A DNA stretch of 6,454 nt from a virus (lineage: Duplodnaviria; Heunggongvirae; Uroviricota; Caudoviricetes), in the IMG/VR virus record IMGVR_UViG_2634166457_000014; one strand, 5' to 3'. Below are positions 1,629 to 6,454 of this stretch, piece by piece. The first letter of the stretch is position 1; the number at the start of each line of letters is the position of its first letter. The notes beneath the pieces are model-generated. The model had not been told where the DNA came from. It was given only the letters and a program-made list of their open reading frames with translations, and did no database searches. The translations under genes and the position numbers were made by a program.

Positions 1629-2855
1629 TTACGCAGCGGCTTTCTGGCGGGTTGCAGCACCGATCTTCATCAGCTTAATCGCCTGAGAATCCACCAGCAT
1701 ACCGCCGGTTCGTTTGGTGGTATAAAAGCCCACAAACGGTTTGTTGGTGTAAGGATCGCGCAGGATACGGGTGCCGATACGATCAACGATGGTATAGCCG
1801 CGTTTGAAGTTACCAAACGCAATGGCTTTTGCATCGGCAGCAATATCCGGCATCTGCTCATTTTCAACGATGCCATACCCTGCCAGAGAAGAAGGCTGAC
1901 CCAGCTCAATGCCCGGACGCCACAGATAATTTCCGTCGTTATCCTTCAGCAGACGAATGGCAAACAGGCTGCTGTTGTTCATCATAAACTTCGCGCCGCT
2001 GCGGTGCGCCTTGCGCAGGGTGTAAATCAGTTTAATGATCGCATCAGCGGTCACGCCAGAAGCCGCACCGGAAGCAATGTGCTGAAGTTTGCCAAACGCA
2101 CGGGTCTTGTCATCTTCATCAGTGGACTCATAAGCCAGAAAACCTTTTGGTTTTTTGCTGCCGTCGCCACTGGTAAAGGCAATTTCTTCCTGTTCGGCAA
2201 ATTCCAGCGCCAGCTCACTGTTGATCCAGTCTTCCACATTGAAGAAAGCATCATCGAGCATTTTCTGGGTAGCCTGCGGGTTGCCGTAGATTTCCCCCAT
2301 AAAGGGTTCAATCAGCCCCAGTTTTGAGGTGGCGGTTTCCGGACGCGTATCCGTTTCCCCCACCCATCCGGACTTAGTGCCGCCCAGATTCACCAGTTTT
2401 TTATAATCCGAGCCACCGAGGGTGATCACAGTGGCTTCCTGGCGCATCACCACCTCATCTTTCAGCAGCGTCAGAATGGTGCGATCCAGTTCTTCCGGAA
2501 TGGCATAACCACCATCTTCATCATTGCCCACCTGCAGCGCCTTACGCTCAAGCTCACGCAGACCGTCTTCACGCCCCTTGCGCATAAATCCGATAAACGC
2601 TTCTTTATGCTCACTGGCAACTTTATTTTGCGTGCCACCTGCCGGACGCTTGACTTCAGCCAGTTCAGCCTCAAGATCGTTTTTGAGATTTTCCAGCTCA
2701 GCCAGTTTTTCGTTGAGAGTTTCCACTTCTCCGGCAAGTTTTCCCTTTTCCTGCTCGATCGCGTCGATACGTTTGTCGTTTTTTGCCTTAAAATCGTCAA
2801 ACTTCTGCTGCAAATCCTGCGCGACCTGTTCCACGTCTTTAATATCAACAGCCAT
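1629..2855 (-). CDS. Major capsid protein, HK97 family, with N-terminal coiled-coil (delta/scaffold-like) region, 408 aa
   Basis: 408-aa ORF directly downstream of the protease, with AGGAGT 6 nt before the ATG. The first ~75 residues are E/K/L/A-rich heptad-like sequence (KLAGEVETLNEKLAELENLKNDLEAELAEV), followed by a globular domain typical of HK97-type capsids (GGYAIPEE..., ...LWRPGIELG...). No separate scaffold gene is present. Confidence 0.92.
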   Translation of the reverse strand: MAVDIKDVEQVAQDLQQKFDDFKAKNDKRIDAIEQEKGKLAGEVETLNEKLAELENLKNDLEAELAEVKRPAGGTQNKVASEHKEAFIGFMRKGREDGLRELERKALQVGNDEDGGYAIPEELDRTILTLLKDEVVMRQEATVITLGGSDYKKLVNLGGTKSGWVGETDTRPETATSKLGLIEPFMGEIYGNPQATQKMLDDAFFNVEDWINSELALEFAEQEEIAFTSGDGSKKPKGFLAYESTDEDDKTRAFGKLQHIASGAASGVTADAIIKLIYTLRKAHRSGAKFMMNNSSLFAIRLLKDNDGNYLWRPGIELGQPSSLAGYGIVENEQMPDIAADAKAIAFGNFKRGYTIVDRIGTRILRDPYTNKPFVGFYTTKRTGGMLVDSQAIKLMKIGAATRQKAAA

Positions 2856-2868
2856 TATTTACTCCTGA

Positions 2869-3519
2869 TTAAAAAGTAAGATTTTTCAGTGCATTCAGTG
2901 CGGCATCCACATCCTCAGCATCACGCAGGGATAAAGCGCCATATCCCCCGGCCATGAATGCTTTGGCCTGGGTTCGCGAAAGTCCAACATCGCGCAGGAC
3001 CCGCTCAATAATTTTCTGATCAGGGATCTCCCCACGCGCCAGCGCATTTTTCACATCGCTGATGCGAGCCTCATCATTGGAAGGAAACGTCACCAGACTG
3101 ACCTCCCACAGGTCGATCTCTTTCAGCAGGAATACCCCTTTTTCACGGTCGTACTCCCAGTCTTTCAGGATGTAGCCAATAGAAAGGCCGGTTAAAGAAC
3201 CGGCCTTCATATGAGCATGTGCACGTTTTGCCAGAGGATCATCATCAACGAGTAATCGCCCCCTGACATAAAGCCCGACATCATCTTCTTTCATTTCGGT
3301 GTACACACCGATGGGCTCATCCATGCGGTGCTGCCAGAGCAACGCAGGCAGCGCCTTTTTTTCGCTCCATTTCTGGAGCGTTGTGGTAAAGGCACCGGGG
3401 ACCACCACATCATCGTGGCTGTCCTTAACACCAAAAACAGAACCGTAACCTTCAAATTCCCCGGAATCACTGACGGATTTCAGGTTCAGCGGTATATCAA
3501 GACGCTGTTTTGTCTGCAT
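2869..3519 (-). CDS. Prohead maturation protease, HK97 family (peptidase S78-like), 216 aa (226 aa if started at 3549)
   Basis: Sits between portal and capsid. Motifs such as GYGSVFGVKDSHDDVVVPGAF and AGSLTGLSIGY are typical of HK97-type prohead proteases. ATG 3519..3517 has AAGGAGAGTGGAG upstream, whereas the track start at 3549 lacks an RBS. The gene overlaps the portal 3' end. Confidence 0.88.
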   Translation of the reverse strand: MQTKQRLDIPLNLKSVSDSGEFEGYGSVFGVKDSHDDVVVPGAFTTTLQKWSEKKALPALLWQHRMDEPIGVYTEMKEDDVGLYVRGRLLVDDDPLAKRAHAHMKAGSLTGLSIGYILKDWEYDREKGVFLLKEIDLWEVSLVTFPSNDEARISDVKNALARGEIPDQKIIERVLRDVGLSRTQAKAFMAGGYGALSLRDAEDVDAALNALKNLTF

Positions 3520-4738
3520 CTCCACTCTCCTTTTTCTTACCGTTGTCATCGCCAGCAGAGGGACTGGTGGTCATGTTCATCGGTGTCAGATACACATCAC
3601 CGCCCGGGCGAGGATTCATATCCTCCAGATCACGGCAGTCATTAGGGGAATAAATCCCCCAGTTGATCCCCGTGGCATACGCTTCAAAGCGGGATTTCAT
3701 GTCGCCACGCAACAATGCTCCGGCATTAAATTTGGCGTAAAACCTCCCCTGTTTGCTCTCCCTGACCAGCCCTGTATTAATCCGCTGTTCAATACGGGTC
3801 AGATACGGCACAAGGGAATAATTAATGAAACCAAGCCCCAGCTCTTCAATATTGTTGAAGGTGGCGCGATCGGTGTTCTGCACCATATGCAGCGGCACGC
3901 GGAACAGGCGACAGATTTCTTCCAGCTGAAACTTGCGGGTTTCCAGGAACTGGCTGTCCTCGGCATTCAGTGCCACCGTTTTCCAGTCCAGCCCCATTTC
4001 CAGAATCATCGGACGATGAGAATTTCCCAGCCCGACATGCCGTTCCTCAAAGTCCTTTTTGATACGCGCATAAGCCTGATCAGAAAGTTGTTGATCCGTA
4101 CGCAACACACCGGATGTCACCGCGCCGTTACCAAACAGCCTGGCGCCGTGCTCCTCAGTTGCCGCTGCCAGTGAAATGGCCTCACGCGCATACGCAATGG
4201 GATTCAGCCCGACCAGTCCGTCCAGCGTCAGAGTGCGCACATGCCAGATTTCATCCTGGGTCAACACATCCACGGAACCATCCGGAAACGTCACCTGATA
4301 AACCGGCTGCCACTGGCTGTTCAGTTTCGGCTCCACACAGCCCGGATCAATCGGAAGAAGCTCCACCACTTCCCCCAGAGCCTTCACTTTGTAGGCGTAA
4401 AAATTACCCCGCAGGCACAGGCAGACGATAACCAGCTCCCAGAATTCCTGCGGCGTCATGTAGCCATTGGGTTTTGCCGAAACCAGCTTATGCAGTCGTT
4501 CATCCACTGCCCGTGTTTTAAGAGTGCCGGTGATTTTGTAGAGGCTGCAGGGCAGCATACCAACAGACTCCGCCAGCACCCTGACGCAGGAATACACCGC
4601 CGTCAGTCGCATGGCCCGCTGGCTGCTGATCCGCTTTCCGGTATAGGTGTCGTATGACAATCCCAGTTCTTCCGCAAGCATCCCGGGCGTTGTGACGGGA
4701 GTGTTATTTTTGCGCTGAAAAAGCCCCTGGAAAAACAT
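3497..4738 (-). CDS. Portal protein, HK97 family, 413 aa
   Basis: 413-aa ORF immediately upstream of the protease, with an acidic C-terminal tail and the size and content of Phage_portal family proteins. GGAGGTGA lies 5 nt upstream of the ATG at 4738. Confidence 0.92.
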   Translation of the reverse strand: MFFQGLFQRKNNTPVTTPGMLAEELGLSYDTYTGKRISSQRAMRLTAVYSCVRVLAESVGMLPCSLYKITGTLKTRAVDERLHKLVSAKPNGYMTPQEFWELVIVCLCLRGNFYAYKVKALGEVVELLPIDPGCVEPKLNSQWQPVYQVTFPDGSVDVLTQDEIWHVRTLTLDGLVGLNPIAYAREAISLAAATEEHGARLFGNGAVTSGVLRTDQQLSDQAYARIKKDFEERHVGLGNSHRPMILEMGLDWKTVALNAEDSQFLETRKFQLEEICRLFRVPLHMVQNTDRATFNNIEELGLGFINYSLVPYLTRIEQRINTGLVRESKQGRFYAKFNAGALLRGDMKSRFEAYATGINWGIYSPNDCRDLEDMNPRPGGDVYLTPMNMTTSPSAGDDNGKKKESGDADKTAS

Positions 4739-4920
4739 TACTCACCTCCGGAGGCGACCCGGTGACCGCGATCGAGATAACGCGCAACCAGCCACGACCA
4801 GCACAGGCACAGCGCCCCGGCAACAACAAAACCTGCCGGGGGATAAATCAGCCATGCGCCATACGACAGCAAAAGCGCCCCCAGCACGCCCACCAGTGGC
4901 GTGAGAATTATCAGAAACAT
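4738..4920 (-). CDS. Small hydrophobic protein, 60 aa, two predicted transmembrane helices; function unknown
   Basis: ATG 4920..4918 with GAGGG 5-6 nt upstream, starting 11 nt after the terminase TAA. Its TAA overlaps the portal ATG (TAATG). The sequence [48 protein letters not shown] has a charged C-terminus ([11 protein letters not shown]). Codon usage is CTG-rich like the neighbours. Confidence 0.6.
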
Positions 4921-4931
4921 AATGCCCTCGG

Positions 4932-6269
4932 TTAAAGCGAGCGGATACCAACACTAATCAGGTGTTCAGACAGATCCGGCTCCGGTTCACCGCCATTGAC
5001 CAGCATCCGGCTCATTGCTGTAAACATCGCAACAGGGCCGTCGATTTTGGCTTCCGGCGTGGATTTATTCGGGAAGATATTGTCGTTTTTGTCCGGTTTC
5101 ACCGTAACGTTAGACATCATCCAGTTCATGACCGGGTGATTGCTGTGGTGAAAACGCCCGGCATAGACCAGCGATTCCGTTTCCTTCATGGCCTCTGACA
5201 GATTGCGAACCGTCTGCGGAACTTCCACCAGCGGTATCCCTTCTTCAGCCAGCGCCAGACTGAACTGCATTGCACTCCACGGGTCAAATCCCAGTTCCCT
5301 GAGGTTTTCACCACCAATCCATTCCAGTAAATCACTTCTTATCTGAGCATGATCGATAACATCACCATCCGTCAGGATGAGCTTATCCATCTCCGCCCAT
5401 TTCCGGTAAAGCTCCGCCATCTGCCGCGAGCACCGCTCCAGTCGCCCTTCCGGAAGCCAGAATTTAAAATCGGCATGAACATGCTCGTTATCCGTTCGCC
5501 AGAGTTTTGCCGCCGCACAGATATCAATCTTATGAGCAAGGTCGACGCCGACCCACATGGGATACGTTTTCAGCTCATGCTGTGGAGCGATGTATTCGCA
5601 CTTCTCCCACTTAATCATGTCCATCCAGGCCGATTCGGCAGTGACCCACACATTCATGTGTTTGGTGAAAAAATTCACCCGCGCCGAGACCTGCTCCTTC
5701 GCTTTTTTCGCCAGACGACGCAGATCATCCCAGCGTTTACAGATGCCCAGGCCCGGATTCGCTTTCTGCCAGACCGTTTCATCAAACGGATCATCTCCCT
5801 CATCGAGCGTGTAAATAATCGCAAAGTAGGAGTCGTCTTTTACCGCGCCCTCCACGTCGCTGTTATAGCCTCGCAATACCTTAATGGCGTAATCACGTTG
5901 CTCGTAACAAATCCCTTCCTTGTTAAAGCCCGCCGTGGTGATACCAAATAACAGGGACTGCAGACGGGCACCGGTTGCCGTTTCCAGAACGTCCCACACG
6001 TCGCGGGTTTTATGTGCATGCAACTCATCAATAATGGCGCAGTGGATGTTCAGACCGTCCAGGTTGTTTGCATCCGAGGAAAGCGGTTCAAATTTTGATG
6101 CGCTCTGCTCCTGGTAAATCGCCAGCTTGTTGAAATCAAACAACCGCCCGAGTGTCGACCGGGCTTTTCTGACCATATTTTTGGCGTCTTCAAACACGAT
6201 TCTGGCCTGGTCACGCGTGGTTGCGGCTGAATACACCTCAGCACCGCCTTCACCATCTGCCCCCGTCAT
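4932..6269 (-). CDS. Terminase large subunit, C-terminal ~445 aa (end of ATPase domain with Walker B-like IIDELH, plus nuclease domain); frame-disrupted relative to its N-terminal part
   Basis: The translation starts with [28 protein letters not shown] and carries ...[18 protein letters not shown]..., typical of the Terminase_1 family downstream of the P-loop. The Walker A segment is found in a different frame upstream (6271..6454). Confidence 0.88.
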
Positions 6270-6270
6270 A

Positions 6271-6454
6271 CTACAGGCCGATACCCGATGACAGGGTTGA
6301 TTTTGCGTTTTTACGGGCGACTTCGTTGTACGCCGTCCGGAACCGGCGCACCATCACCGGGCGTCCGCTGCCATCGCTGCGCATGACAACTTCCCCGGTA
6401 TCTTCATTCACCAGCGGAATGACAAAACCAAAAATATTAATGAGGATAAATACA
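6271..6454 (-). pseudogene. Terminase large subunit N-terminal fragment (contains Walker A-like segment), 5'-partial in window, terminated by in-frame TAG at 6273..6271
   Basis: Manual translation of the minus strand in the frame with codons starting at 6453 gives VFILINIFGFVIPLVNEDTGEVVMRSDGSGRPVMVRRFRTAYNEVARKNAKSTLSSGIGL*. This is P-loop-like and colinear with the downstream terminase ORF, but shifted by one nucleotide. Confidence 0.6.

Follow-up and report, generated by a model that had tools for sequence, protein, structure and literature searches.

A YmfR-family gene for a predicted membrane hairpin at the portal start of an enterobacterial prophage head module

What is the 60-codon gene that fills the space between the large terminase and portal genes of a prophage head module, and what ties it to the portal? 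The question is raised by a stretch of caudoviricete DNA in IMG/VR (record IMGVR_UViG_2634166457_000014), in which an open reading frame (ORF) at positions 4738–4920, here called the small gene, encodes an almost entirely hydrophobic product. By "the window" we mean the whole of this stretch, 6,454 nt in length, a block of head genes from an enterobacterial prophage, with every gene on the minus strand. An original prediction, made from the letters alone, had described the ORF as an unexpected insertion and a moron-like candidate. For the window itself, our findings mostly correct that description: the gene belongs, as an ordinary and annotated member, to a widespread phage family, and is neither an unusual insertion nor a moron. 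The prediction that it encodes a small membrane protein of unknown function was supported.

The gene is a member of an already known, uncharacterized family, YmfR (PHROG 502). Residues 1–54 of the small protein align with positions 3–56 of the 58-position profile phrog_502, labeled "membrane protein", with an E-value of 5.9e-26, and the protein is 78% identical to YmfR (b1150) of E. coli K-12 across all 60 residues (E = 2e-25). K-12 carries ymfR in the cryptic prophage e14, where it lies between remnants of the terminase (aaaE) and portal (beeE) genes and is labeled "IPR020297 domain-containing protein". Annotated homologues are found at the same position in phages phiP27 (L37), SfI (gp3), SfII (gp3), ST64B (Sb3, gene sb3), phiKO2 (gp3) and Azospirillum phage Cd (gp30), and the gene is present, but unannotated, in SfIV and PY54. 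All of the annotated members, YmfR included, lie between the large terminase and portal genes or their remnants. We see no structural difference between them and the window copy, which departs from them mainly in its first four residues and its tail. The small protein shares with the family the profile match, a size of ~50–70 residues with two hydrophobic helices linked by the turn [YF]GAW-IY-PAG[FY]I, and a position right before a portal gene of family PF04860, usually with overlapping stop and start codons. An exact copy of the protein is already held at NCBI as an E. coli hypothetical protein (P0001). No functional study of the YmfR family turned up in the literature; a small-protein preprint by Sberro et al. 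and papers on SPP1, Microbacterium and Paenibacillus phages had no bearing on it.

Individual copies vary in their state and in their labels. In e14 of K-12 (locus L219), ymfR is intact while the flanking terminase and portal genes are pseudogene remnants, and one copy in Shigella flexneri (CP182557, locus L031) is frameshifted early in the gene. GenBank records ON470580, ON470603, ON470584 and PQ793804 label the homologous gene "head-tail joining protein W". In lambda, W lies between A (the large terminase subunit, TerL) and B (the portal), and gpW is a soluble head-completion protein. The two proteins are thus alike in gene position and similar in size, whereas one is soluble and the other a hydrophobic hairpin. 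Since the small protein also has no match to the gpW Pfam family at E ≤ 1, the label appears to be a naming error.

The signals around the gene were read base by base and, together with its nearest neighbors, are as follows.

4738–4920, minus strand: YmfR-family gene (PHROG 502), 60 codons plus stop, identified by the PHROG 502 match, the 78% identity to YmfR and its substitution pattern (pN/pS, below)
4925–4929, minus strand: GAGGG, the Shine-Dalgarno sequence of the small gene, within the 11-nt spacer (4921–4931) between TerL and the ORF
4736–4740, minus strand: TAATG, the stop/start overlap of the small gene and the portal gene, from the sequence reading
4745–4749, minus strand: GGAGG, the Shine-Dalgarno sequence of the portal gene, inside the invariant Gly58-Gly59 codons of the small gene
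3497–4738, minus strand: portal gene (PF04860; Pfam E = 4.1e-107), the coupling partner
4932–6269, minus strand: C-terminal 445 codons of the TerL gene (PF20441/PF03354, from Pfam), the upstream neighbor

The TerL stop codon TAA (4934–4932) is followed by the 11-nt spacer CCGAGGGCATT and then by the ATG of the small gene (4920–4918). At its 3′ end the ORF reads GGA GGT GAG TAA, and the final A of the stop codon (4738) is the A of the portal ATG (4738–4736). This reading confirms the ORF, its own ribosome-binding site (RBS), the 11-nt distance from the TerL stop and the TAATG overlap, all as originally described. An equivalent GAGG also precedes the start codon in homologous loci, and the enterobacterial loci carry GGAGG, GGGGG or AGGGGG before the overlapped stop/start. 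Because the stop and start overlap and the portal RBS lies within the last codons of the small gene, ribosomes can re-initiate on the portal gene. The suggestion of co-translation with the head genes was therefore sound, the small gene being translationally coupled to the portal gene.

The region 4738–4920 is protein-coding and under purifying selection. In a codon alignment of the window with 16 divergent enterobacterial copies (17 in all), the ratio of nonsynonymous to synonymous polymorphism (pN/pS) is 0.32 for residues 2–46 in the annotated frame, compared to 0.47–2.1 in the other five frames. Variable columns over these 45 codons are distributed 29/19/43 among the three codon positions, and none of the 17 copies contains an in-frame stop. 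The tail (residues 47–60) is nearly neutral, with a pN/pS of 0.77; the corresponding value for the portal gene is 0.19. Gly58 and Gly59 are invariant within this tail, but their codons (GGAGG or GGGGG) double as the portal Shine-Dalgarno sequence, so that the invariance is a dual-coding constraint and is uninformative about the protein. A lack of coding conservation among related prophages, the outcome that the original prediction had named as speaking against it, is contradicted by these data, since both the frame and the synonymous bias are conserved.

The same data bear on whether the region might instead be a chance ORF or an RNA element, such as a hairpin or attenuator, between TerL and the portal gene. 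A 9-bp GC-rich hairpin at ~4815–4841, a terminator annotated inside the homologous ORF of SfII, and three weak terminator-like matches, compared to 0.9 expected, would favor such an element. However, the hairpin is found only in the E. coli/Shigella clade and does not appear in the consensus fold of the alignment, the mRNA folding energy is no lower than that of synonymous-codon permutations (z = −0.26), and the selection is frame-specific. We give this reading practically no chance and have dropped it, as it is refuted by the substitution pattern. As to the structures themselves, weak stem-loops lie inside the ORF at 4875–4887 and 4815–4841; divergent homologues do not retain them, and their stability does not exceed chance. 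In the SfII record, a "putative rho-independent terminator" is annotated at positions 2370–2419, within the homologous ORF.

The family extends well beyond the enterobacteria. A single-sequence search returned 151 homologues across Enterobacterales, a profile search of 1.84 billion cluster representatives returned 368 clusters at 50% identity, nearly all of 45–110 residues, and a second profile search returned 1075 clusters at 90% identity. Gene neighborhoods come from 185,579 genomes, which were scanned with no more than two peptide patterns of the small protein; the neighbors were then located by tblastn with the TerL and portal of the window. This motif-only scan yielded 52 loci, nearly all with TerL upstream and the portal gene immediately downstream. 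They include loci in Halomonas, Salinicola, Chromohalobacter, Reyranella, Rhodoferax, Sphingopyxis, Shinella, Micromonospora and Ruminococcaceae, in which the portals are just 25–40% identical, and they place the small gene just 5′ of portal genes in Gamma-, Alpha- and Betaproteobacteria, Actinobacteria and Firmicutes. Most of the scan loci retain the stop/start overlap (TGATG, TAATG or TAGTG), which in gamma-, alpha- and betaproteobacteria is 1 nt or 4 nt long. Loci without a portal match are contig-end cuts or decayed remnants; two of them (L049 and L054) were considered as free-standing copies and rejected as decayed prophage remnants.

Among close relatives the gene is always intact. Upstream DNA is present in 79 of the 80 IMG/VR contigs whose portals are 85–100% identical to that of the window, and all 79 carry an intact 60-codon copy that ends on the portal ATG, in 37 distinct variants. 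The terms "unexpected" and "inserted" in the original prediction do not survive this distribution, since an annotated family occupies the same position before PF04860 portals across several phyla. The accompanying statement that HK97-like modules run from terminase straight to portal is true of HK97 itself, in which the TerL and portal genes overlap directly and the small gene is absent. The 80 close relatives retrieved with the HK97 portal (96–100% identical) likewise all lack the gene. Thus, the small gene is common but not universal.

Copies nearly identical to the E. coli/Shigella form occur in a metagenome-assembled genome labeled Bacillota (L009) and in the 1764-bp record of Enterococcus phage Efm 3-10 (H64); these Gram-positive labels are probably due to contamination or mis-binning and do not reflect true hosts. 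The portals encoded behind the small gene (loci L001–L057; 4715–4738 in the window) begin with a conserved hydrophobic motif, M-F-F-x-G-L-F, M-F-W-P-x-L-F or M-A-G-L-F-G, and the portal of HK97, which lacks the small gene, begins MEEPKYTIDL. This N-terminal motif could be a contact site or a mere shared trait of the clade.

Comparisons among these loci show that the small gene belongs to the portal cassette and is inherited with the portal rather than with TerL. Similarity of the window to phiP27 and SfII starts ~15 nt inside the 3′ end of TerL, and TerL types that are 36% identical are joined to the same block of small gene, portal, protease and capsid genes. The TerL type can thus be exchanged (36% vs 99% identity) while the small gene and the portal remain together. 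Across 41 loci, the identity of the small protein correlates with that of the portal with a Spearman coefficient of 0.67, compared to 0.54 for TerL, and the small proteins are 36% identical in pairs with >70% identity in TerL and <50% in the portal, compared to 55% in pairs with >70% identity in the portal and <50% in TerL; as the pairs are not independent, these figures are descriptive. Phage Evi combines a TerL 3′ end like that of the window with a different portal, and a divergent member of the family precedes that portal (hidden Markov model E = 7.7e-8). Two metagenomic contigs are interrupted on the TerL side, one by a 276-residue gene between TerL and the small gene and the other by a gap of ~500 nt, and in both the small gene still lies 14–17 nt 5′ of a PF04860 portal gene.

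The end of TerL itself, at ~4921–4950, is a module-exchange junction, at which the 36%-identical TerL types share nearly the same last ~20 nt and spacer (TCCGCTCGCTTTAAC...). This junction resembles a conserved linker for recombination. Which four residues the small protein begins with (MFLI or MIML) mostly goes along with the TerL type.

The product has a grand average of hydropathy (GRAVY) of +1.13, with two hydropathy maxima on either side of YPPAG. An AlphaFold2 model, computed with 27 homologues in the input, consists of two helices (residues 2–25 and 27–57) with a break at Tyr26-Pro27 and a mean predicted local distance difference test (pLDDT) score of 84. Both results agree with the original description of a nearly all-hydrophobic, two-helix protein, whose parts are encoded as follows.

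4846–4917, minus strand: helix 1, residues 2–25 (AlphaFold2 and hydropathy), with conserved Gly at family-logo positions 12, 15 and 22
4831–4845, minus strand: turn Y-P-P-A-G, residues 26–30, with the helix break at 26, at the center of the signature [YF]GAW-IY-PAG[FY]I
4783–4830, minus strand: hydrophobic part of helix 2, residues 31–46 (AlphaFold2 and hydropathy), followed by a conserved A-[RK] flank
4741–4782, minus strand: variable charged C-terminal tail, residues 47–60, delimited by its pN/pS and predicted to be cytoplasmic

The family logo reads G-x-x-G-x-x-L-x-[SA]-[YF]-G-A-W-L-I-Y-x-P-A-G-[FY]-I-[VT]-x-G ... A-[RK]. The turn residues Pro, Ala and Gly are each kept in 100–115 of ~130 cluster representatives, Arg or Lys occupies logo position 48 in 97 of 119, and the turn motif recurs in homologues from Alphaproteobacteria, Actinobacteria and Firmicutes. 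The protein is predicted to form a two-helix hairpin whose termini both lie in the cytoplasm and whose YPPAG turn sits on the outer side of the membrane. This topology follows from the positive-inside rule, given the Arg or Lys after helix 2, the basic N-terminal extensions of distant members and the uncharged turn. Natural tandem duplications of the hairpin occur in four proteins of 102–122 residues (P0150, P0172, P0220 and P0241), each with two GAW..PAG motifs, and hint that hairpins work as pairs or oligomers. Neither the small protein nor six distant family members matched any Pfam or NCBIfam family at E ≤ 0.1, a sequence search of the PDB found no homologous chain, and a Foldseek search of BFVD returned only uncharacterized small phage proteins, none at E ≤ 0.001.

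What the hairpin does next to the portal is a separate question, for which we offer a tentative answer. The small protein may be a membrane-anchored partner of the portal that helps to start or position assembly of the portal ring or prohead, which we regard as possible rather than probable. The small gene would be transcribed with the lytic head operon, and the hairpin would insert into the inner membrane during its synthesis. Ribosomes finishing the small gene would re-initiate on the portal gene, and the portal would thus be made alongside in a set ratio. The hairpin might then tether or nucleate the portal ring and prohead initiation, or place the packaging vertex at the membrane. It would be a simpler counterpart to T4's membrane-bound portal initiator, gp20, which depends on gp40; gene 40 is not known to lie next to gene 20 in T4. 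In T4, gp40 assists the assembly of the portal initiator on the inner membrane, and the initiator can be crosslinked to YidC (PMC9958956). We propose gp40 and YidC as hypothetical functional analogues, that is, as a membrane-linked factor at the step of portal or prohead initiation, and claim no sequence relationship. That YmfR-family hairpins serve the portal ring as dedicated membrane anchors or nucleators is, in our estimate, doubtful.

Several observations weigh against a partnership with the portal. Conservation peaks in the membrane core and the outer turn and not in the portal-facing cytoplasmic tail, with its pN/pS of 0.77, and self-association or a membrane partner would explain such core-centered conservation no less well. 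Contact with the portal is putative, and the logic of expression could by itself account for the adjacency and coupling. HK97 and 80 of 80 close portal relatives are without the gene, so PF04860 portals in general do not need the small protein. Fusions to the portal or TerL are absent among the 313 family proteins retrieved, which include tandem duplications only, and no PDB chain is homologous to the small protein. Finally, the adjacent TerL is frameshifted, so that the window copy may reside in a defective prophage.

The protein might instead be a late effector on the host membrane itself, as a small oligomeric channel or a holin/antiholin-like protein that alters potential, permeability or the timing of lysis, which we consider unlikely though not negligible. 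Its ~60 residues, two hydrophobic helices and charged C-terminal tail are like those of class II holins and pinholins (two transmembrane helices, ~70 residues), the highest conservation lies within the membrane, where the regularly spaced Gly and Ala would suit helix packing, and the tandem duplications described above suggest hairpin pairing. An ASKA clone of ymfR gave a halo of D-alanine release in the first round of a screen and lost it in the second (PMC10299036). This result is weak and ambiguous, as 65 of 392 clones scored in the first round and the authors attribute the halos partly to leakage or lysis from overexpression of membrane proteins (PMC10299036). Unlike holin genes, the small gene lies outside the lysis cassette: in phiP27 the genes for two holins (L28, L29) and an endolysin (L30) lie ~4 kb upstream, with HNH, TerS and TerL genes between. 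No Pfam family of any type, and so no holin family, matches at E ≤ 0.1, even with the six distant members included, and a holin role would leave unexplained why stop/start coupling to the portal is so strict across phyla. That coupling would be accounted for if the gene were mainly a translational device, feeding ribosomes to the portal start, setting dosage and perhaps bringing the late mRNA to the membrane, with a peptide that has no partner. The universal stop/start overlap, the portal Shine-Dalgarno sequence in the last codons, which fixes Gly58-Gly59, and the nearly neutral tail all agree with such a device. We find it quite unlikely, however, since a generic leader would not retain the 20-residue signature [YF]GAW-IY-PAG[FY]I..G from Enterobacterales to Actinobacteria and Firmicutes, the pN/pS of the core is 0.32, and HK97 couples TerL to the portal directly without such an ORF. 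The fixed co-expression with the portal could also point to a minor component of the virion or procapsid bound at the portal vertex, such as a plug or a protein that aids ejection and enters the membrane of the host during infection. The gene accompanies the head module in phiP27, which has an annotated tail sheath, as well as in phiKO2 and PY54, which we take to be siphoviruses. But a hairpin of such hydrophobicity would be hard to fit into a membrane-free capsid, it has no match among PDB chains, and no virion proteomics mentioning the small protein was found in the literature searched, so that we rate a virion role as very unlikely.

The moron-like reading of the original prediction holds the gene to be a horizontally acquired and independently expressed accessory gene, for superinfection exclusion, an immunity peptide or a toxin. 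The product is a small membrane protein of unknown function within a late operon, the category assigned to PHROG 502 is "moron, auxiliary metabolic gene and host takeover", and the GC content of the gene lies above that of its flanks. The last point had been judged by eye and is correct as a measurement (0.611 over 4741–4920 vs ~0.52–0.56), but not as a sign of foreign DNA. The GC contents at codon positions 1 and 2 are 0.68 and 0.50, compared to 0.59 and 0.41 in the portal gene, whereas those at position 3 (GC3) are at the same level (0.65 and 0.62). As the excess is confined to positions 1 and 2 and GC3 is native, it reflects a composition rich in Gly, Ala, Leu, Pro and Trp. Morons have their own promoter and terminator, a patchy distribution and expression in the prophage; HK97 gp15, a small membrane exclusion protein, is a late-operon moron. 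The small gene resembles such lambdoid late-operon morons in encoding a small membrane protein among late structural genes, but it is without these signals and is present in every close relative checked. The 11-nt gap between TerL and the ORF leaves no room for a promoter. The lone promoter-like match (4935–4907; one, compared to 0.6 expected from shuffles) has its −10 hexamer inside the ORF, past the ATG. Since the stop codon overlaps the portal ATG, the gene also has no terminator of its own, and the only terminator-like match downstream is a 6-bp stem across the portal RBS and start. No PADLOC defense family matches at E ≤ 1. The intact copies in 79 of 79 close relatives and the synteny across phyla are the opposite of patchy, and the moron reading, which we hold to be highly improbable, is largely refuted by this distribution. 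Gene position and distribution likewise argue against holin-like, exclusion and toxin roles. In K-12, ymfR is upregulated along with other e14 genes by an SOS-inducing drug (log2 fold change 4.5; PMC10012262). This response fits expression of ymfR from the lytic operon, although it demonstrates co-induction only.

The remainder of the window contains only head genes, among them head-completion genes and the following two, both assigned by Pfam.

2869–3549, minus strand: S78 prohead protease gene
1629–2855, minus strand: HK97-type capsid gene

The TerL gene is disrupted at ~6271 on the minus strand by one extra G (CTGTA-G-TATG), compared to the intact 585-residue TerL of close relatives (L143, L147 and L159). 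The insertion creates a TAG stop and a frameshift, which split an N-terminal piece (in the frame of 6274–6453) from the 445-codon ORF at 4932–6269. Either the prophage is defective or the extra base is an error of sequencing. In some E. coli genomes this TerL gene bears the label "TerL endonuclease subunit", possibly owing to the same split.

For annotation, the label "head-tail joining protein W" appears wrong, and the "moron" category of the PHROG does not match the distribution of the family. What emerges for the family is a membrane hairpin of ~60 residues with a signature that crosses phyla, tied to the portal start in many head modules and with a copy in E. coli K-12. If the small protein does act on the portal, it would reveal where and how portal rings and proheads start in many temperate phages. 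If YmfR-family hairpins are anchors or nucleators, the cytoplasmic membrane would be where a large group of HK97-fold phages, spread over Proteobacteria, Actinobacteria and Firmicutes, begin to assemble proheads or to package DNA; T4 (gp20/gp40) is the case for which membrane-bound initiation has been established to date. The YmfR family would then be a previously unrecognized and widely conserved head-assembly factor, with a ready representative in K-12.

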